Part shown: piece after piece, positions 7,622-36,479 of the stretch
How the letters are laid out: every line of letters begins with the position of its first letter
Numbering within the stretch: the first letter of the stretch is position 1
Assembly (NCBI GenBank): GCA_964016885.1
Contig: OZ024749.1
Coordinates: 3,906,001-3,970,000 of the forward strand
Reading direction: 5' to 3'
Length of the DNA: 64,000 nucleotides
Source of the DNA: Eledone cirrhosa
Lineage: Eukaryota
The notes under the pieces: generated by a model
Seen by the model: the letters and a program-made list of their open reading frames with translations, nothing else
Told to the model about the DNA's origin: nothing
Database searches by the model: none
Position numbers and translations under genes: made by a program

Positions 7622-9216
7622 TTGTATGACTGTGTCACAGCTGCTAGTGTGACTGTGTAACATCTGCTAGTATGATTGTGTCACAGCTGATTGTATGACT
7701 GTGTAACAGCTGCTAGTATGACGGTGTCACATCTGCTAGTATGACTGTGTCACAACTGCTAGTATGACTGTTTAACAGCTGCTAGTATGAGTGTGTAACA
7801 TCTGCTAGTATGACTGAGTCACAGCTGTTAGTATGATTGTGTAGCAGCTGCTAGTATGACTGTGTCACAGCAGATGGTATGACTGTCACATCTGCTAGTA
7901 TGACTGTCACAGATGATAGTATGACTATCACAGCTGCTAGTATGAATGTGTCACAGCTGCTAGTATGACTGTGTAACAGATGATAGTATGGCTGTCACAG
8001 TTACTAGTATGACTGTCACAACTGCTAGTGTGACTGTGTAACAGTTGCTAGTATGACTGTGTCACAATTGCTACTATGACTGTGTAAAAGCTGCTAATAC
8101 GACTGCGTCACAACTGCTAGTATGACTGTGTAACAGCTGCTAGCATGACTGCGTAACAGTTGCTATTATGACTGTCACAGTTGCTAGTATGACTGTGTAA
8201 CATCTGCTAGTATGAATGTGTCACATCTGCTAGTATGACAGTTTAACAGCTGCTAGTATGACTGTGTAAAATATGCTAGTATGACTGTTTCACAGCTTCT
8301 AGTATCACTGTGTGACAGGTGCAATTATCACTGTGTCACAGCTGCTAGTATCACTATGTCACAGGTGCAATTATCACTGTGTCACAGCTGCTAGTATCAC
8401 TGTGTCACAGGTGCAATTATCACTGTGTCACAGCTGCTAGTATCACTGTGTCACAGGTGCAATTATCACTGTGTCACAGCTGCTAGTATCACTGTGTCAC
8501 AGCTGCTAGTATGGCTGTGTAACAGCTTATAGTATGCGTGTGTCAAAGCTGCTAGTATGACTGTAGCACAGCTGCTAGTATGACTGTGTCACAGCTGCTA
8601 GTATGGCTGTGTAACAGCTGATAGTATGACTGGGTCACAGCTGGTAGTATGACTGTGTCACAACTGGTAGTATGACTGTGTCACAGCTGATAGTATGACT
8701 GTTTAACAGCTGCTAGTATGACTGTGTCACGGCTGCTAGTATGACTGTGCCACAGCTGGTAGTATGACTGTATCACAGCTGCTAGTATGACTGTGTCACA
8801 GCTGCTAGTATGACTGTGTAACAGCTGCTAGTATGACTGTGTCACAGCTGGTAGTATGACTGTGTAACAGCTGGTAGTATGATTGTGTCACAGCTGCTAG
8901 TATGACTGTGTAACATCTGGTAGTTTGACTGTGTCACCGCTGCTAGGATGATTGTGTAACTGCTGCTAGTATCACTGTGTAACACCTCATAGTATGACTG
9001 TAACATCTGCTAGTATAACTGCGTCACAGCTGCTAGTATGACTGTGTCACAGCTGCTAGTATGACTGTGCCACAGCTGCTAGTATGACTGTGTCACCGCT
9101 GCTATTATGACTGTGTAACATCTGGTAGTATGACTGTGTCACAGCTACTAGGATAACTGCGTAACTGCTGCTAGTATGATTGTGTCACAGCTGCTAGTAT
9201 GACTGTGTCACAGCTG
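7622..9216. repeat. 23-bp tandem satellite (GTATGACTGTGTCACAGCTGCTA)n, about 70 units, with 21-bp deletion variants
   Basis: Direct reading. The unit contains the inverted repeat CTGTG-T-CACAG. Confidence 0.97.
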
Positions 9217-12410: not shown

Positions 12411-12978
12411 TCGAATTGGTGCTCTGAAATACCGATATATGAATGTATATAGAGTGTATTTTGCAATACACCCCATGTTTAATTAAAAGCATTTCGAAGA
12501 CTATACGCTATTGTTTTAAAGTAGTGACAGTTTCACTTACTTTAAATGTTCAGCAAACAGGGGAGATAAAGCTGACAGTGCTCCGTTTCGTACTTGTTGG
12601 TACTTATCAAAGCTAAATACTCCACCTGTTTGCAGAAAATCATGTCATGAATGTTTGACTGTTATAGAAATCTAGTAATAATCAGGAACTGATTATATAG
12701 AGCGGTTGCCGGTCAAGCAGAAATTGAAAATTAGAATTGGTGCTCTGAAATAGCGATATATATATATGAATGTATATATAGTGTATTTTGGAATACACTG
12801 TATGCTTAATTAAAAGCATTTCGAAGACCTTACGCTATTGTTTTAGAGTAGTGACAGTCTCACTCACTTTAAATGTTCAGCACACAGGGGAGATAAAGCT
12901 GACAGAGCTCTGTCAATTTTATCTCCCCTGTTTGCTGAAAATTGAAGTAAGTGAGATTGTCACTACTCTAAAACAATA
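12411..12978 (-). mobile_element. Non-coding retrozyme/PLE-like unit: partial tandem (~327-nt period) plus terminal fold-back
   Basis: 12413-12579 repeats at 12734-12905. 12836-12978 is a palindrome centred on GACAGAG|CTCTGTC. A related copy lies at ~19415-19670. Confidence 0.75.
12570..12614 (-). ncRNA. Type I hammerhead ribozyme, U3:A8 variant core
   Basis: Minus strand: AGCT-TTGATAA-GTAC caacaa GTAC-GAAAC-GGagcaCT-GTC^AGCT. Stem I extends further (GCAAACAGG/CCTGTTTGC). Confidence 0.85.
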
Positions 12979-13728
12979 TTTATAAAGAGAGCCAAAAGTT
13001 GAGCAATTAATTGAAATGTAATTGTAAAAAAAAGTTTAACAAAATGGGTGTACAGTGACATGATTGAGTGAAATAAACGGCAACATAAAAACAATTCTTG
13101 GGGTAGCTTGAGTTAATTGACGTAAATGATTTCAGGTCAGCCTTGCTGTAGTAGGTATGAGTAAGGGGATAAAGATGGAATAGACGCACCGTATGTCCTT
13201 CAGTAGACTAAACCCTATGCGTAAGATGGCGCTGCCACTACCACGTTGACCTTGTAGTGGACATAGAAATATCATTCCTTGAAGCAACTATTCCCCCTCG
13301 ACGCCTGATAATGAGCAAAAAGTTTAAGTTAATCAAAACGAAGACACTGTTGCCGAGAATGTTGCTGCACGATTTTCAGAGGCCATAGCGAGTCAGACTG
13401 CTAGGTTAGGGGCCATATCAAGTCAAACTGCTAGGCTAAGGGCCAAATTGCAAGTAAGCGATGACATAGAATGCATTTTAAGGCAATCATTTTCGCAATG
13501 GTCATTGTTGTAACATAAAAAGGTGTTATATAATGAACTAAGAAGCAGAAAGAAGAACTCTGCCTGCCCTAACTGGTTATTCCAACCGGTTTCATGTTAA
13601 TAACATGGTAATTGTGACATGCCTAAAATGCTATCCGGTTCTATCCGTTCATGTACGTGTGCTAGTCATGAGTGGCTGGGTGTGTTTATTGTGAGTATGA
13701 AGAACGAAAACCAAACAAACGGCATGAA

Positions 13729-16500
13729 TCAGTTCCTATAGAACGATGTTCTTTGATTTACCCTTGGGAAGAAAGGCAAAGATAGTGTCCCGACTCTGGA
13801 GCATGCAACGTATAATTGGCCATGTGAGAAACATGGCTCTTCCTGGTGAAGATGTGCCAACGAAAGTGTCTGGCCCTGGGGCTTATTGACGGACATTGCA
13901 AAGCACACACGAAGCGGATTTTGTGATCGCCTGAAAGTGAAAGGAATGTCCGCCCCTGATGTAGTCAGGTGGAGCCTGGTTATTAGTGCATCCTCTCCCT
14001 TTCCACACCCAGTGATAATTGTGGCCTCTATCAGGCGCGGAGACATCTTTTACAGATGTTGTGGTGGGGTTTGATTCCCCAAAAGCATCACGGGGGTTCC
14101 CTCTTTCAGCTTTAATATGTGAGGAGCTAGTCCTGGAGGATTCAAGGAGTTAAGAAATTCAGTGCGGTAATTCACTGCCTCCTGCGGATCTGGAACAATA
14201 TCAACGGATTTGATGTTCACCAGGAAGGCACTACAGTCACTGGTCGTTGATACCCCTGAGTTTTCCTGTAGATTGGGGAAAACTCTTGCCTTGAGGTTAG
14301 CCACAGTTGTAACAGTAGTGCAAAGGTGATCGATGAGTATGTCGCCATGTGCATCCATATGAATCCTGCTATCGCCCAGTGCAAGGATGTCCTGAGCAAA
14401 TTTTTCTGAAAAAGGTTCGCCGTGCTGCTGTGCCCGTAGACAGCCGCAAAGTTTTTACATGCTGCCAAAGTGAAGAAGACTTTAGGCAGGCGCGTACCTC
14501 ATCGGCTCCCTTTCCTTTGGGTATGACGGGAAGAGTTTGTCTGAAGTCTCCTGACAGTAGCAGAGTAACACCTCCCATGGGATCTTCACAATCCTTGATA
14601 TCTCGTAAGGTCCTATCAACTGCCTCGAGAGCCCTTTCTGTGCTATTCTGCATTCATCCCACACAATGAAGTCGCACCTCCTCAGCAGTTGTCCTCTATT
14701 AGAGTTTTAGCAATGTTGCATGATGGAGTTTCTGAGGAGTCTAAATTGAGGGGAAGTTTAAAACAGGAGTGTGCTGTCCTGCCACCAGGCAGCAATGTTG
14801 CAGCAATACCAGACGATGCTACTGCTAGCGCGATTTTTTTCTGCTGCCTTAATTTAGCGAGCAGTAGTTTAATAACAAACGTTTTTCCAGTCCCTCCGGG
14901 AGCATCCAGGAAGAAGATGCCCCCTTTCCGAAGAAGTACGGCATAGTATCATGGACGTATTTTGCGAGGGCGACAACGTCATATGACGTTTCTCGGATGA
15001 TGTCAGTGGGGAGTTTATTTGGATCCGATCGTAGGGTTTGCGGCAGGCAATATGTCGGTAAAATATCCCCCCCCCCCCCATGCATATTAATCGGTCTTCT
15101 AAACTAATAAGTGCCGTATTGTAGACATCATCGCAAAAGCCTACGTGAACATTTGGAAGCAGTAGCTGGGCCTGGTATCTGAAGTCCTCAGACATGTCGT
15201 TTCTATATTTTAACCACCAATAATCAGGATCAGGCAAATCGCACGCGTGCAGCATAAGTGCGTATAACTTTCTGAGACAGCCAGCTCTATGTGATACAGC
15301 CGCCTCGTCCACATTTCATCCCATTGAGCGCCGTCCTCAAGTAGGCTGTATTTCAAACATGCTTCCGTGTATGTAGTGCATAATTGGCCATCAACAGTTC
15401 TAAGGCTGAGGAAACTTGTAGGCCCTCTCACCTCATGTAAAAGCAGGCGCAGGTAGAAGCACTCGTGCTGGTTGGGATGAACCATATAAACTCTCCCCAG
15501 GCAAGAGTCAAATCAGATGCCGGGGTGTCCATCAACATGCTGGCCTGCCTTTCTCCGTGTCCATGACTTTTTGTTCCAGGTGTAATAATATGATGGCACA
15601 TGTGGATACAGCAGCATTCGAGCGAATGGTCTTGTTGGCAGAGCCTAAAAAAACGCCGTGAGTGCTGTTTCCTTCGGCTCATCTGCAAGTTGAAAATCAT
15701 TGTTGTTGTTAAAATAAACACGTTGGCCATTCTCGAGGTGAACCGCAAGCTTTTCAATGAACTTTCTGGGGTATCTTTTGGTGCACCCATTGTCCTTCAT
15801 ACATGGGGAGGACAAATTGAAGCCACGCCCACACGGACCATGCACCATGTGTGTCATAACCTGAACGTAGAGTTCCCTATCAGTTGATTGGTCGGGAAAC
15901 TCTGCCGATATAATGCTGTCGATGTCATTAGATGTAATCTTTGTCGTTGACCAAATCAAAATGTGTGCATGTGGCAGACCTTTTTTTTGCCATTCAATTG
16001 TATACATGTCACACTGTGTATGTTCAAATACATGGCCTGTTTTAATAAGGTACATGAGTTTAATTACTCGAAGCCTAAATACTCTTCTTGTGAGACCATG
16101 CCTGTCTTTGGCCTTTTGACCAGGAAAAAGTTCATTCTCGATCTCCGGCCACTTGGGGTTGCAAGTAAAATTAATAAATAAATCCGGCCTGCCATAATGC
16201 CGTACATATGTCATGGCGTCCTGCCTTCTTTCATGCATATATGTGGGGCTCCCGGTGAAAGATGAGGGCAGTATGCACACTTGACCTAGGCTTCCCGGAT
16301 CTGCATCACCGTTGGTTCCATCACGGAGGTGGATGTAACTCACAACGAAGCTGATTTTGATTCAGTCTGATGAAACACAACCTTTCCGACTTCATTTTTG
16401 CACACATGTCAACAGCGAATTGGTTGAAGAGATCTTGTGAACAGGTGAAGGTGATTGAGGGAGGATTCTCGGATCATGAGGCGGAATGTGTAGAAGTCCA
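13729..16500 (-). mobile_element. Helitron RepHel pseudogene fragment (HUH Rep + Pif1 helicase), frameshifted
   Basis: Rep motifs HYGRPDLFINFTCNPKWPEI and YTIEWQKKGLPHAHILIW. Helicase motifs WDEC, GGVTLLLSGDFRQTLPVI, FAMSVNKPQGQTL and CFSHGQLYVACSRV. Split across many short ORFs. Confidence 0.95.
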
Positions 16501-16527
16501 TGGACGGGTGCTCAGCCTGATTGTTAG

Positions 16528-16656
16528 TATTTACGATCTGAGTTCAAATCCCGCCGAGGTTGACTTTGCCTTTCATCCTTACGGGGTCGATAAAATAAAG
16601 TACCAGTAATTCACTGGGTAATTGCTGGCCTTGTGCCTAAAGTAGAAACAATTATT
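16528..16656 (+). mobile_element. tRNA-derived SINE, 5'-truncated
   Basis: B-box GAGTTCAAATCCC, core GCCTTTCATCCTTACGGGGTCGATAAAATAAAGTACCAG, tail GAAACAATTATT. Matches other copies in the window. Confidence 0.9.
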
Positions 16657-17640
16657 GATTAGTAATAGTGTGTACCCTCTTTCGAGTAGAATTTCCTTTA
16701 ATTCTTGAAGTCTTTTATTTCGGGTTTCATAATTGGAGACAGTTGTGCAAATTCTTCTTGGTAGGTTAAAAGAAATATTCGTCTTCGTGTGCTTTGGATG
16801 GTTTGAGGTGAATACCAGGTATTGTTTGGAATCTGTTGGTTTGTAGTGTATGTCAGTTTCAATATTTGTGTCCTTTTTTAAGATTAAGATATACAGAAAT
16901 GGAAGTTGATCTTGGCTGTATTCCATTGTGAATTGGATGTGGTTATTGATGCCGTTTATTAAGTTTTTGAACTCATTCAGCTGGTCTAGTGTGTGGGACC
17001 AAAGAATGAGACAATCATCCAAGTAGCGTTTCCAATTCTCTGATAAATATTTGTGGAAGTTCAATCCGTATTTTGATTGGACTGTTCATATATCTGGACT
17101 TCTAAGTATGCCATGACTAAGTTGGCATAAGTTGGAGCGGCTTTTGTACCCATCGCAGTCGGCGATATTTGCTTGTAAGTACTGCCATCGAAATAAAAAA
17201 AAGTTGTTCTGTGAGATGAATTTTAATCCTTCGGTGATGAAGCTTTTTTCTATTCTGTCTGGTATCTCATTGGGATATTTCTCTAGCCAGAATCCTATTG
17301 TTTCTAGTCCGTATTGGTGTGGGATCGTTGTATAGATATTCACTACATCGAAAGACACAATAATAGTGTCGTTGTTGACATGTTTGGGGAGGTGGCTTAA
17401 GAGTCCAGATCGTCTCTTACAAGGTTTGGTATGTGTTTGAGAATTGGTTTTAGTACATTGTCTATAAAGTTGCTCAGTCTGTGTGTTTCACGTTGTGGGC
17501 CCGCTACAATTGGTCTTAATTTAAGGTCTGTGGGGTATTGTGTGTTCACGCAGGCTGAGGTGGATTGTTTACAGGCATCGTTGATTATTTTACACTTGTG
17601 GATCTTCGGAAGTCACTAAAGGTTGCTGGTTTTGTATACA
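16657..17640 (-). mobile_element. Penelope-like element reverse transcriptase fragment (pseudogene)
   Basis: RPIVAGP, SFDVVNIYTTIPH, WKRYLDDC, IQFTMEYSQDQLPFL, IHYKPTDSKQYL..SNHPKHTK: PLE RT core and thumb motifs, frameshifted. Confidence 0.92.
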
Positions 17641-17829
17641 AAATGTGTTAAATAAACCTTAACAGCCGTTTGCACACACAATACAATAGAACAGATACGA
17701 ATAAGTAAGGAAAATATGTTCATTCAAAAATATTCCTACTAAATGAATGATTTTCCTACACACACACACACACAGACACAGACACACACACACACACAAT
17801 ATACATATATATTCTCCTCATCTTAACAT

Positions 17830-19065
17830 GCTAACCATACTCCCACACACATAACACCCATACACACACATAACAACCCCCACACCCAGACACACAAAAC
17901 CCCTCTCCCATTTCTACTAATAGAATCACTTTCCTACACACACAAAATATATATTCTCTCCATCTTAACATACTCCCACACACACACACACACACACAGC
18001 TCCCTCCCCCTTTTCTACTAATAGAATCATCTTCCAATACACACACGCACACACACACATACACACAAGCACACAAATAAACATACTTATCTTTACTTTC
18101 TTTATTCAATAGAAAATCTGAATTCTGACACCCCAGCGAACTAACCATATTCACTGAACCAGAACAATTCTCCCATCCCATTTCTCTTGACCATTATCTT
18201 TTGCTTGTCATAAAATTCTCTAAATAGGCTACAGACTATATTTCCAAATAAGGGCGCGAACATTTAATGGAAACTTGTTCACGTGACAGCAATAATTTCA
18301 TTTATAACCAATCAAATTACGTTTATAAAAAAAAAGCCTTCGTGAGCCCCCGTTTTTAAGTAAAAGGACATTCAAACACACACACACAACACACACGCAC
18401 ACACACACACACACAAGCACACAAATAAACATACTTATCTTTACTTTCTTTATTCAATAGAAAATCTGAATTTTGACACCCCAGCGAACTAACCATATTC
18501 ACTGAACCAGAACAATTCTCCCATCCTATTTCTCTTGACCATTATCTTTTGCTTGTCATAACATTCTCTAAATAGGCTACAGAATAGATTTCCAAATGAG
18601 GGCACGAAAATTTAATGAAAACTTGTTCACGTGACAGCCATAATTTAATTTATAACCAATCATATTGCGTTTATTAAAAAAAAGCCTTCGTGAGCCCCTT
18701 TTTTAAGTAAAAAGAAATTCAAACACCCACACACAACACACACACACACAACCTCACAAATAAACATACATATCTTTACTTCTTTATTCAATAGAAAATC
18801 TGAATTCTGACACCCCAGCGAACTAACCATATTCACTGAACCAGAACAATTATCCCATCCCATTTCTCTTGACCATTATCTTTTACTTATCATAAACATC
18901 TCTAAAAAGGCTACAGAATGGATTTCCAAATAAGGGCGCGAAAATTTAATGAAAACTTGTTCACGTGACGGCCATAATTTCATTTATAACCAATCAAATT
19001 ACGTTTATTAAAAAAAAGACTTTGTGAGCCCCTTTTTTTAAATAAAAAGAAATTCAAACACTCAT
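17830..19065 (+). repeat. About 340-350-bp tandem repeat (3 units plus partials) in a PLE-like 3' region
   Basis: ACAAATAAACATAC..CTTTACTTTCTTTATTCAATAGAAAATCTGAATT recurs near 18072, 18421 and 18756. Confidence 0.92.
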
Positions 19066-19275
19066 ATATGAAAAATACAACCTGTGACCCCCCCTTCCCC
19101 CCTTGTTTGAAGAACTTTGTAACGCGAACTGGCGCGAAATTTATTATAATTATTGACCAACCAATCAAATTGCTTCTCGAAAAACCTGGCATTTCGAGCC
19201 ACTTTTTCCATATAAAACAAGTAACATTCAGAGACCAACCAGATGTGAGAAAAACCACAGACCCTCCATCTCAAC

Positions 19276-19317
19276 TCTACTTTTGAAAAGCAGAAGAACT
19301 GCGAAACCGGTAAAAGA
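19276..19317 (+). ncRNA. Minimal type I hammerhead ribozyme, U3:A8 variant (TTGAAAA)
   Basis: TCTacTT-TTGAAAA-GCAG aagaa CTGC-GAAAC-CG-GTA^AAAGA. It closes the PLE 3' region just before AT-rich/(TA)n sequence. Confidence 0.7.
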
Positions 19318-19531
19318 ACCAAATAAATATATATATTATTTTTTTAAATAAGACTCCAGTTGCATTTTCGATTTCATCTTTTTTTCTTTATATATATATA
19401 GATATATATGTATATATAATGTATTTTGCAATACACTTTATGCTTAATTAAAAGCATTTTGAAGACCGTAAGCTATTGTTTTAAAGTAGTGACAAATTCA
19501 CTCACTTTGATCTCAGCAAACAGGGGTGATA

Positions 19532-19575
19532 AGCCGACATGACATGTTTCGCTTTGGTTGAAGCTTATCAAGGCC
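19532..19575 (-). ncRNA. Type I hammerhead ribozyme, U3:A8 variant core
   Basis: Minus strand: GGCC-TTGATAA-GCTT caacca AAGC-GAAAC-ATgtcAT-GTC^GGCT. Paralog of 12570-12614. Confidence 0.85.
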
Positions 19576-19669
19576 AACTACCCCACCTGTCTACTGAGAT
19601 CAACCGCTCTGCATAATCAGCTCCTGATTATTTACTAGATTTCTATAAGAATATAACATCATTGATCTC

Positions 19670-20016
19670 AAATAAAAATAACAACACAAGAGAGAGTTAC
19701 CTTGGGAGAGATGTAATGGTCCCTATATATTTCGGATTCACATCCATCAACTGGGGTTTTTTTCCGGGGTGGGGGAAAAGTTTGTCTGTCGGACAAGTGC
19801 GGAACGCGTGCTTCGCTGTTTGTTGTTTTGAATATCGTGAATATTGTTTTGATATTCAAAACAACAAACAGCGAAGGACGCGTTCCGCATTTGTCCGACA
19901 GACAACCTTTTCCCCCGCCCCGGAAAAAACCCCAGTTGATGGATGTGAATCCGAAATATATAGGGACTATTAAATCTCTCCCAAGGTAACTCTCTCTTGT
20001 GTTGTTATTTTTATTT
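19670..20016. repeat. Fold-back palindrome (~166-bp arms, 14-nt loop) with a degenerate HHR in each arm (19930-19965 +, 19721-19756 -)
   Basis: Arms are reverse complements with a few mismatches. Motif CCC-cagttga-tGGATgtgaATCC-GAAA-TATA-TA-GGG. Confidence 0.9.
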
Positions 20017-20170
20017 TATCCTTTATACTCTTCCCTTCATTCTACACATCTTATACACACCACGCATCTCAACGTACACCCACTTACATCTCTCTCTCCA
20101 CCACCGGACGTTGTTACACGGAGATTTACCCATTTGCATTGTCGAGGCTTCCAAACGACTTAAAGATATT

Positions 20171-33299: not shown

Positions 33300-36200
33300 G
33301 TGGTGGCGGTTCTGATAGTGTTTGTGGTGATGTCGGCGGTGGTGTTGTTGACGGTGGTGATGTTGGTGGTGGTGGTGTTGGCGGTGGGATGTTGGTGGTG
33401 GTGGTGTTGGCGGTGGGGATGTTGGTGGTGGTGATGTTGGTGGTGGTGGTGTTGGCGGTGGGGATGTTGGTGGTGGTGATGTTGGTGGTGGTGATGTTGG
33501 TGGTGGTGATGTTGGTGGTGGTGGTGTTGGTGGTGGTGATGTTGGTGGTGGTGATGTTGGTGGTGGTGATGTTGGTGGTGGTGATGTTGGTGGTGGTGGT
33601 GTTGGTGGTGGTGGTGTTGGTGGTGGTGATGTTGGTGGTGGTGGTGTTGGTGGTGGTGATGTTGGTGGTGGTGATGTTGGTGGTGGTGATGTTGGTGGTG
33701 GTGATGTTGGTGGTGGTGGTGTTGGTGGTGGTGGTGTTGATGGTGGTGGTGTTGGTGGTGGTGATGTTGGTGGTGGTGATGTTGGTGGTGGTGGTGTTGG
33801 TGGTGGTGATGTTGGTGGTGGTGATGTTGGTGGTGGTGATGTTGGTGGTGGTGATGTTGGTGGTGGTGGTGTTGGTGGTGGTGGTGTTGGTGGTGGTGGT
33901 GTTGGTTGTGGTGGTGTTGGTGGTAGTGGTGTTGGTAGTGGTGATGTTGGTGGTGGTAGTGTTGGTGGGGGTGGTATTGGTGGTGGTGATGTTGGTGGTG
34001 GTGGTGTTGGTGGTGGTGGTGGTGGTGATGTTGGTGGTGGTGATGTTCGTGGTGGTGGTGTTGGTGGTGGTGGTTTTGGTGGTGGTGATGTTGGTGGTGG
34101 TGGTGTTGGTGGTGGTGATGTTGGTGGTGGTGATGTTGGTGGTGGTGGTGTTGGTGGTGGTGATGTTGGTGGTGGTGGTGATGTTGGTGGTGATGTTGGT
34201 GGTGGTGGTGGTGTTGGTGGTGGTGGTGTTGGTGGTGGTGATGTTGGTGGTGATGTTGGTGGTGGTGGTGATGTTGGTGGTGATGTTGGTGGTGGTGGTG
34301 TTGGTGGTGGTGATGTTGGCGGTGGTGATGTTGGTGGTGGTGGTGTTGGTGGTGGTGGTGTTGGTGGTGGTGATGTTGGCGGTGGTGATGTTGGTGGTGG
34401 TGGTGATGGTGGTGGTGATGCTGGTGGTGGTGGTGTTGGTGGTGGTGATGTTGGCGGTGGTGATGTTGGTGGTGGTGGTGTTGGTGGTGGTGATGTTGGT
34501 AGTGGTGATGTTGGTGGTGGTGGTGTTGGTGGTGGTGGTGTTGGCGGTGGTGATGTTGGTGGTGGTGGTGTTGTCGGTGGTGATGTTGGTGGTGGTGGTG
34601 TTGGTGGTGGTGTTGTTGGTGGTGGTGGTGTTGGTGGTGGTGATGTTTGTGGTGGTGGTGTTGGTGGTGGTGGTGTTGGTGGTGGTGGTGTTGGTGGTGG
34701 TGGTGTTGGTGGTGGTGATGTTGGAGGTGGTGGTGTTGGTGGTGGTGGTGTTGGTGGTGGTGGTGTTGGTGGTGGTGGTGTTGTCGGTGGTGATGTTGGT
34801 GGTGGTGGTGTTGGTGGTGGTGTTGTTGGTGGTGGTGTTGGTGGTGGTGATGTTTGTGGTGGTGGTGTTGGTGGTGGTGGTGTTGGTGGTGGTGGTGTTG
34901 GTGGTGGTGATGTTGGAGGTGGTGGTGTTGGTGGTGGTGGTGTTGGTGGTGGTGGTGTTGGTGGTGGTGGTGTTGGTGGTGGTGGTGTTGGTGGTGGTGA
35001 TGTTGGTGGTGGTGGTGTTGGTGGTGGTGGTGTTGGTGGTGGTGGTGTTGGTGGTGGGGATGTTGGTGGTGGTGGTGTTGGTGGAGGTGGTGTTGGTGGT
35101 GGTGGTGTTGGTCGTGGTGGTGTTGGTGGTGGTGATGTTGGTGGTGGTGGTGTTGATGGTGGGGATGTTGGTGGTGGTGGTGTTGGTGGTGGTGGCGTTG
35201 GTGATGGTGGTGTTGGTGGTGGTGATGTTGGAGGTGGTGGTGTTGATGGTGGGGATGTTGGTGGTGGTGGTGTTGGTGGTGGTGGTGTTGGTGGTGGTGA
35301 CGTTGGTGGTGGTGATGTTGGTGGTGGTGGTGTTGGTGGTGGTGGTGTTGGTGGTGGTGATGTTGGCGGTGGTGATGTTGGTGGTGGTGATGTTGGTGGT
35401 GGTGGTGTTGGTGGTGGTGATGTTGGCGGTGGTGATGTTGGTGGTGGTGATGTTGGTGGTGGGGATGTTGGTGGTGGTGATGTTGGTAGTGGTGATGTTG
35501 GCGGTGGTGATGTTGGTGGTGGTGGTGTTGGTGGTGGTGATGTTTACGGTGGTGATGTTGGTGGTGGTGATGTTGGTGGTGGTGGTGTTGGTGGTGGTGG
35601 TGTTTGTGGTGGTGATATTGGTGGTGGTGGTGTTGGTGGTGGTGATGTTTGTGGTGGTGATGTTGGTGGTGGTGATGTTGGCGGTGGTGATGTTGGTGGT
35701 GGTGTTGTTGGTGGTGGTGATGTTGCCGGTGGTGATGTTGGTGGTGGTGATGTTGGTGGTGGTGATGTTGGTGGTGGTGGTGTTGGTGGTGGTGACGTTG
35801 GTGGTGGTGATGTTGGTAGTGGTAATGTTGGCGGTGGTGATGTTGGTGGTGGTGGTGTTGGTGGTGGTGATGTTGGTGGTGGTGATGTTGGTGGTGGTGG
35901 TGTTGGTGGTGGTGATGTTTGTCGTGGTGATGTTGGTGGTGGTGATGTTGGTGGTGGTGATGTTCGCGGTGGTGATGTTGGTGGTGGTGACGTTCGTGGT
36001 GGTGATGTTGGTAGTGGTGATGTTGGCGGTGGTGATGTTGGTGGTGGTGGTGTTGGTGGTGGTGATGTTGGCGGTGGTGATGTTGGTGGTGGTGACGTTG
36101 GTGGTGGGGATGTTGGTAGTGGTGATGTTGGCGGTGGTGATGTTGGTGGTGGTGGTGTTGGTGGTGGTGATGTTGGCGGTGGTGATGTTGGTGGTGGTGA

Positions 36201-36478
36201 TGTTGGTGGTGGTGGTGTTGGTGGTGGTGGTGTTTGTGGTGGTGATGTTGGTGGTGGTGGTGTTGGTGGTGGTGATGTTTGTGGTGGTGATGTTGGTGAT
36301 GGTGATGTTGGTGGTGGTGGTGGTGTTGGTGGTGGTGATGTTGGTGGTGTTGATGTTGGTGGTGGTGATGTTGGTGGTGGTGATGTTGGTGGTGGTGATG
36401 TTGGTGGTGGTGATGTTTGTGGTGGTGATGTTGGTGGTGGTGATGTTGGCGTTGTTTTTGTTTGTGATGATGATGTTG
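33300..36478. repeat. 15-bp minisatellite (GTTGGTGGTGGTG[A/G]T)n, about 210 units
   Basis: Direct reading. It produces the QHHHH, NITTT and MLVVV ORFs. Confidence 0.97.
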
Positions 36479-36479
36479 G

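Follow-up and report, generated by a model that had tools for sequence, protein, structure and literature searches.

Non-LTR retrozymes of animals, i.e. retrozymes without long terminal repeats (Cervera and de la Pena 2020, PMC7229834; reviewed in PMC7761336; see also Li, Clavereau and Pollet 2026, 10.64898/2026.07.22.740005) are described as low-GC, non-coding tandem units of 150–450 bp, each carrying one type I hammerhead and co-occurring with Penelope-like elements (PLEs). Hammerheads with a compensatory change of the core pair 3:8 from C-G to U-A are also in print: natural U3:A8 covariation in several hammerheads was reported in 2011 by Perreault et al. (PMC3088659), where the in vitro activity of the covaried pair is cited as already shown, and ~1,300 U3:A8 hammerheads in Schistosoma PLEs, including the minimal ones of Cercyon, followed in 2014 (PMC4209133). 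Here we describe a 64,000-nt stretch of the Eledone cirrhosa genome (assembly GCA_964016885.1, contig OZ024749.1, positions 3,906,001 to 3,970,000; 'the window' below) with two U3:A8 type I hammerheads, both belonging to one non-LTR retrozyme family with a unit of 316–327 nt. This family resembles the published animal retrozymes in all the traits listed above, and differs from them in its U3:A8 core and in a palindromic helix III of 11–13 nt. It shares the 3:8 swap with the natural U3:A8 hammerheads on record, but its hammerheads are full-size with tertiary loops, lie inside a retrozyme and occur in both 3:8 states as sister subfamilies.

The reading that we favour, at a probability of roughly 0.8, is that of a retrozyme repeat that would be transcribed, would likely cut its own transcript after GUC into unit-length RNAs that likely circularise, and would likely be written back from the circles into (TA)n DNA by a PLE enzyme, acting from both sides of a break. 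The window features that belong to the family are as follows.

12570..12614, minus strand: type I hammerhead of subfamily A (helix II GUAC/GUAC), matched by the descriptor (fold z-score -3.36); U3 lies at 12610 and A8 at 12605, with cleavage predicted after C17 (12574).
12413..12913, minus strand: retrozyme arm with a full 327-nt unit at 12574–12900 (cut site to cut site) and a partial unit that stops near the long (tail) end, followed by (TA)n.
12902..12978, plus strand: opposite arm, which begins in the helix III palindrome and breaks off at about unit position 65.
19532..19575, minus strand: type I hammerhead of subfamily B (helix II GCUU/AAGC), matched by the descriptor (fold z-score -1.81); U3 lies at 19571 and A8 at 19566, with cleavage predicted after C17 (19536).
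19396..19602, minus strand: subfamily B retrozyme arm, which terminates within (TA)n at unit position 140 (the short end).
19601..19670, plus strand: inverted retrozyme piece (unit positions 188–257), joined to a different element.

Both hammerheads had been placed at 12570–12614 and 19532–19575 by an earlier note made from the sequence alone, and were recovered there with the stems it gave; a type I descriptor (positions 3, 7 and 8 free, 4-bp helices I and II) matched only these two sites in 64 kb. Each has three helices round the core, an open helix I and an NUH cut site, and each departs from the strict C3-U4-G5-A6-N7-G8-A9 consensus at U3 and A8, a consensus that the C3:G8 sister subfamily described below does carry. 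The predicted minimum-energy structure was the hammerhead for copy 1 (12570–12614) and a different fold for copy 2 (19532–19575). Where the earlier note saw two paralogs changing compensatorily in all stems, the copies proved to be related, not as a lone pair but as members of two subfamilies of one repeat; five pairs differ between them on both sides (helix I 2.1:1.1, three of the four helix II pairs and helix III 15.4:16.4), whereas helix I pair 2.4:1.4 changes on one side only (A-U/G-U). Copy 1 has a private substitution at 15.3, a G in a G-U pair, where the family has A in 241 of 248 parsed copies. The family was also recovered as contigs from two sequencing runs of unknown kind, in which two helix III letters differed between copy 1 and the family.

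Across 21 subfamily representatives, 98.3% of the cells of the active fold were paired and 7 of the 14 pairs changed on both sides, with covariation in all three helices as the earlier note had suggested; the covariation score was 0.505, compared with 0.240 in shuffled controls, which ignore relatedness. Helix II exists in four versions (GUAC, GCAC, GCAU and GCUU) that differ by whole pairs. The hammerheads are real and, as a fold read from sequence, well supported, and the pattern of stem changes fits selection on the RNA fold. At the sequence level, a loop 1–loop 2 motif (hexaloop plus UAC/UAG helix I bulge) aligns with Rfam HH9, and the last A of loop 2 is kept in 245 of 248 copies. Curated Rfam thresholds did not call a hammerhead (HH9 21.5 bits against a cut-off of 52), and the 150 of 258 matches listed in a whole-window Rfam scan comprised microsatellite-driven microRNA matches only and no hammerhead. 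The earlier statement that standard searches miss the family is in this respect fair. However, a C3:G8 relative also fell below the cut-off (Hammerhead_1, 14 against 34 bits), so the miss is not caused by U3:A8 alone.

Genome-wide, the U3-U7-A8 core pattern gave 2,996 matches against 3 for a reversed control, which argues that the motif is not a chance one, and DNA searches of the 3.0-Gb genome returned 2,243 and 1,010 first-look candidates. Three representative units had 34–35% GC with a longest ATG frame of 45 aa, consistent with non-coding DNA, and no reverse transcriptase (RT) plus GIY-YIG open reading frame (ORF) of the kind that marks an autonomous PLE lies inside the unit. Copies are dispersed across many loci in the manner of a mobile element. 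Tandem pairs with two intact cores numbered 30; most arms (281/289) touch only one to three units, and the longest reach 15 and 18 units. By its sequence, the family falls within the definition of animal non-LTR retrozymes given in PMC7229834. A satellite or otherwise decayed repeat, with its likeness to a hammerhead due to chance or left as a dead relic, would account for the score below the Rfam gathering threshold and for the private substitutions in helix III of copy 1; set against the 2,996 to 3 ratio, the whole-pair changes between subfamilies and the dispersed young copies with PLE ends, this explanation is very improbable.

The genome holds both states of the 3:8 pair. With U7 fixed, core counts were 2,996 for U3:A8, 24 for C3:A8, 29 for U3:G8 and 40 for C3:G8, of which 18/24, 16/29 and 1/40 of the latter three classes looked family-like by eye. 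The single family-like C3:G8 locus had G8 in both arms and so pointed to a subfamily. When position 7 was left free, 116 C3:G8 matches were found (about 100 count as the sister subfamily), and 27 of 30 fetched C3:G8 loci contained the same retrozyme unit, ~85% identical and ending at the same pair of sites. Of the 148 matches whose N7 is not U, the first 100 comprised 74 C3:G8, 23 U3:A8, 3 C3:A8 and no U3:G8. Neither these 100 matches nor the genome-wide U7 set contained an intermediate U3:G8 or C3:A8 subfamily, and in all amplified subfamilies the 3:8 pair is a Watson-Crick one, U-A or C-G.

Single changes at 3 or 8 stood at ~0.6% each, a rate that matches the level of private substitutions of the copies (1.3–2.3% per site) and identifies the singles as rare decay after insertion. 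U3 and A8 thus do not vary independently in genomic copies, independent variation being what the earlier note had named as evidence against its proposal. The private substitution level (0.013–0.023 per site) was highest in C3:G8, though the groups are small and unevenly sampled. In an unrooted tree of 56 of 139 copies, built with positions 3, 7 and 8 excluded, the 12 C3:G8 rows formed one side of a branch (support 100/100); the 3:8 positions therefore covary, though as one event, the direction of which would take a root to read. We suggest that U3:A8 was fixed a single time, as a swap neutral for pairing, that selection acting on source RNAs would keep 3:8 in register and that genomic copies probably decay at random after insertion.

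As a novelty in itself, U3:A8 was anticipated by the 2011 and 2014 reports cited above. The swap alone is known and, in the Eledone genome, common: a U3:A8 pattern with a short helix III gave 21,444 matches against 134 controls, and those listed came mostly from one PLE family. What this analysis adds to the known swap is the C3:G8 sister subfamily of the same unit.

Insertion architecture was examined in 199 loci (220 minus 19 overlapping and 2 window loci), of which 158 contained the unit. The 3' ends of 289 arms fell at about unit position 145 in 133 cases, at about 171 in 119 and elsewhere in 37. Head-to-head arm pairs numbered 111 in the 158 loci; in 84 of them both ends lay at one of the two sites, and a short end was paired with a long end in 79 of these 84 (binomial p = 3e-18). 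Long ends ran into (TA)n in 75 of 79 cases, and the tail was about 26 nt. Target-site duplications are unreadable inside (TA)n. PLE insertions have been described as inverted, 5'-truncated copies with a tail usually at one end only and a bias towards microsatellites (10.1101/2021.04.23.441226; PMC8557442), and in vitro the PLE tail equals the distance from one RT start site to the other (PMC11167929). Because the two fixed 3' ends, the one-sided tail and the (TA)n target match these published traits, mobilisation of the retrozyme by a PLE is a strong inference from sequence. The animal retrozyme papers, in the passages drawn on here, do not describe insertions in (TA)n that have two arms and a PLE tail. 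Twin priming on a single RNA, as in L1, where one arm stops at the point at which the other starts, does not agree with the scattered 5' ends (judged by eye).

At the copy 1 locus, the two arms meet within the palindrome of helix III (12902–12913), which looks like a fold-back of the complementary DNA at that point; an arm start at -13 occurs at this locus only among 333 ends.

Neighbouring features bear on the identity of the PLE partner.

16651..19390, both strands: truncated two-armed copy of an abundant autonomous PLE, with a minus arm at 17655–16651 that holds RT pieces and a plus arm at 17649–19390 that includes three 348-nt repeats and a minimal hammerhead.
19279..19316, plus strand: third hammerhead, minimal U3:A8 (U3 19283, A17 19312), in the PLE terminal repeat.
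19670..20165, plus strand: a second repeat family, PLE-like, represented by its 3' end, which contains a fold-back and stops at (TA)n.

The earlier note, made without this context, had overlooked the retrozyme family, the marks of PLE insertion and the third U3:A8 hammerhead at 19283–19312. The abundant PLE is a young, two-ORF family with many intact 775-aa frames genome-wide, which contain RT, a C-terminal GIY-YIG domain and a C-x4-C-x2-C linker of Neptune/Nematis type (by eye against PMC8557442); its upstream frame of ~400 aa had no Pfam match, and its terminal repeat holds the minimal U3:A8 hammerhead. It inserts in (TA)n and paired a short with a long end in 6/6 two-armed loci (10 loci inspected), and the last 7 letters of its long end are common to the retrozyme. 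On these sequence traits, the 16651–19390 family is a candidate mobiliser. Endonuclease-positive PLEs of the Neptune/Nematis type (PMC8557442; PMC11167929) share with the retrozyme the 5'-truncated tandem and inverted copies, the one-end tail, the (TA)n bias and the terminal-repeat hammerhead, whereas the retrozyme has no ORF, a tail of ~26 nt and, against the terminal repeat of the sampled autonomous PLE, a weak AT-rich alignment with no BLAST similarity beyond AT-rich words. RT matches lie near 6 of 158 retrozyme loci and appear to stem from insertions nearby.

The family whose end is fused to copy 2 is a different, PLE-like one with 1,977 first-look candidates; other copies of it have RT and endonuclease motifs upstream (by eye). 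The segment at 19670–20165 includes a 170-bp fold-back and is fused to the retrozyme piece; the fusion may stem from a switch of template from one RNA to another or from the nesting of insertions. Retrozyme and PLE ends often lie in one (TA)n tract (loci L042, L150, L162, L181 and L200; 19390–19400 in the window).

Several observations weigh against the reading of a self-cutting, circularising repeat. The 5' ends of 333 arms showed no pile-up at the cut site, with 2 ends at +1 and 6–17 per 10-nt bin across the unit (an excess at -150 to -131 coincides with the edge of the permuted reference and is probably an artefact). As 5' ends are spread over the cut site, the template was continuous across C17, which is compatible with either a circle or an uncut multimer; genomic copies carry no direct trace of cutting, and an uncut multimer would look alike. 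Private variants common to all units of an insertion numbered 3, compared with 78 confined to a single unit. On the unrooted tree, the covariation at 3:8 amounts to one change, and the controls for helix covariation ignore relatedness. Cleavage was not needed for insertion in one PLE tested in vitro (PMC11167929), and 8 of 9 Xenopus retrozyme dimers showed no in vitro cleavage (10.64898/2026.07.22.740005). Finally, the low predicted share of the active fold in circular units reported below could also mean a weak ribozyme.

These points feed an alternative in which the unit is a non-autonomous derivative of a PLE terminal repeat, copied from uncut multimers and never circular, the fold being kept for protein binding or slow protein-assisted cleavage. 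In its favour, 5' ends show no excess at the cut site, the predicted monomer folds sequester the core, and nearly all arms are short, as noted above. Moreover, mutants of an anole PLE hammerhead left insertion unaffected, and that ribozyme needed protein (PMC11167929). Nevertheless, the core and the 3:8 pair have stayed in register across subfamilies 8–23% apart, which fits catalysis better than binding alone; the arms of 15 and 18 units exist, and coral, mussel and axolotl contain abundant retrozyme circles (PMC7229834). We consider copying from uncut multimers unlikely.

For the favoured reading, 5' truncations cross the cut site freely, which a covalently continuous template would predict. 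The alleles of the units speak to the same question. Subfamily alleles were fixed across both arms in 26 cases and mixed in 44, mostly in one unit of several; fixation across arms fits one source per insertion without proving a circle. Scars of A-to-G editing common within insertions were not found among the 3 shared private variants, none of which was A>G. In two separate insertions, L218 and L220, every overlapping unit in either arm carried one A9G allele (2/2 and 4/4); this core change would be expected to harm catalysis, and a defective or edited template was apparently copied at least twice.

With self-cutting and circularisation still the favoured reading, the question arises of how a circle would be kept from cutting itself. 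Most published circles of animal retrozymes, some mussel ones excepted, are predicted to leave the ribozyme free, so that any block there must be other than self-pairing (PMC7229834); in the Eledone family, by comparison, self-pairing of the core is predicted. Helix III and its loop form an 11–13-nt near-perfect palindrome in all common versions, and in most subfamilies the 5' half of helix III is predicted to be able to pair with N3, U4, G5 and helix I's 5' strand. When 27 circular units from the 30 tandem pairs (no more than two from any one locus) were folded, G5 was paired with a probability of at least 0.80 and the active helix III reached at most 0.18 in 27/27. Relative to all possible palindromes, the seven U3:A8 representatives lay in the most core-sequestering 0.4–14% and the one C3:G8 representative at 33%, for related sequences and under a folding model without tertiary contacts. 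The youngest subfamily has lost this alternative helix, yet its U4–A8 are predicted to be hidden in another register.

We tentatively propose, on the basis of these predictions, that the palindromic helix III may form an off-helix through its 5' half, which would pair with core bases 3–5 and helix I and hold the ribozyme inactive. Where a transcript is multimeric, the helix III palindromes of two units would bind one another and thereby activate it. Such pairing between copies resembles that of the double hammerheads known from amphibian satellite 2 and from PLEs (PMC7229834, PMC6765202), although helix III in those systems is too short to form by itself, whereas here it has 4–5 bp and the alternative helix is predicted to prevail over it. 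The full conformational switch, with helix III as antisense strand in the monomer circle and as dimer interface in the multimer, and with the C3:G8 to U3:A8 swap tied to 15.4, is more doubtful still. If such a switch operates, the C3:G8 subfamily might be its natural control and the youngest subfamily might have re-invented the block in a new register; both suggestions are speculative. A literature search, with subscription papers and supplements outside its scope, returned no report of such a local off-helix.

Alternatively, the off-helix may be a by-product of short palindromes in helices I and III, the hammerhead cleaving well as a monomer as most invertebrate retrozyme hammerheads do (PMC7761336), and we regard this as fairly probable. 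Three-way junctions are scored too low by folding programs, which also leave the loop 1–loop 2 contact out of account; an off-run of at least 6 bp occurs by chance in 8 of 256 possible 12-nt palindromes, odds of ~3% for a single lucky origin. Locus counts at the two off-helix pairs (152 loci) point both ways. Pair 2.1:15.5 changes in step (U-A 94, U-G 13, C-G 45) and is mismatched in only 3 loci, which counts against a by-product; pair 3:15.4 is U-G in 63, U-A in 27 and C-G in 23, but unpaired in 42 (U-U 37, U-C 5). Sliding the off-helix by 1–2 columns gave scores of 0.21–0.22 against 0.32, a modest covariation support, and the C3:G8 subfamily was unremarkable against the null. Among tandem pairs, the double hammerhead was dominant in 5 of the 10 whose palindrome is 12 nt long and in none of the 17 whose palindrome is 11 nt long, i.e. 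in only 5 of 27. Against an origin as by-product stand, besides pair 2.1:15.5, the position of all seven U3:A8 representatives among the palindromes and the hiding of U4–A8 by the youngest subfamily by other means.

Other elements of the window and genome were noted in passing. A broken Helitron at 13729–16361 (minus strand; Helitron_like_N and PIF1 helicase matches) lies between the retrozyme copies and is unrelated to them. The window also contains a 23-bp minisatellite (70 copies) at 7624–9216 and a 15-bp G/T-rich array (211 copies) at 33324–36479. Elsewhere in the genome, a further U3:A8 family has G7 and a very short helix III (L282 and others), and other C3:G8 hammerhead-like motifs combine a long helix II with a helix III that runs into TA repeats (L269, L272, L276 and L278).

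The added value of this family lies in its natural C3:G8 sister lineage, its whole-pair helix II versions and the predicted off-helix. Two amplified sister lineages ~16% apart, one C3:G8 and the other U3:A8, together with four versions of helix II, constitute a natural experiment. The rule of one short and one long end supports PLE mobilisation of retrozymes, for which the published proposals, as presented in the papers cited here, rest on co-occurrence and phylogeny. The off-helix, if true, would answer for one lineage how animal retrozyme circles avoid self-cutting, a question left open in PMC7229834.

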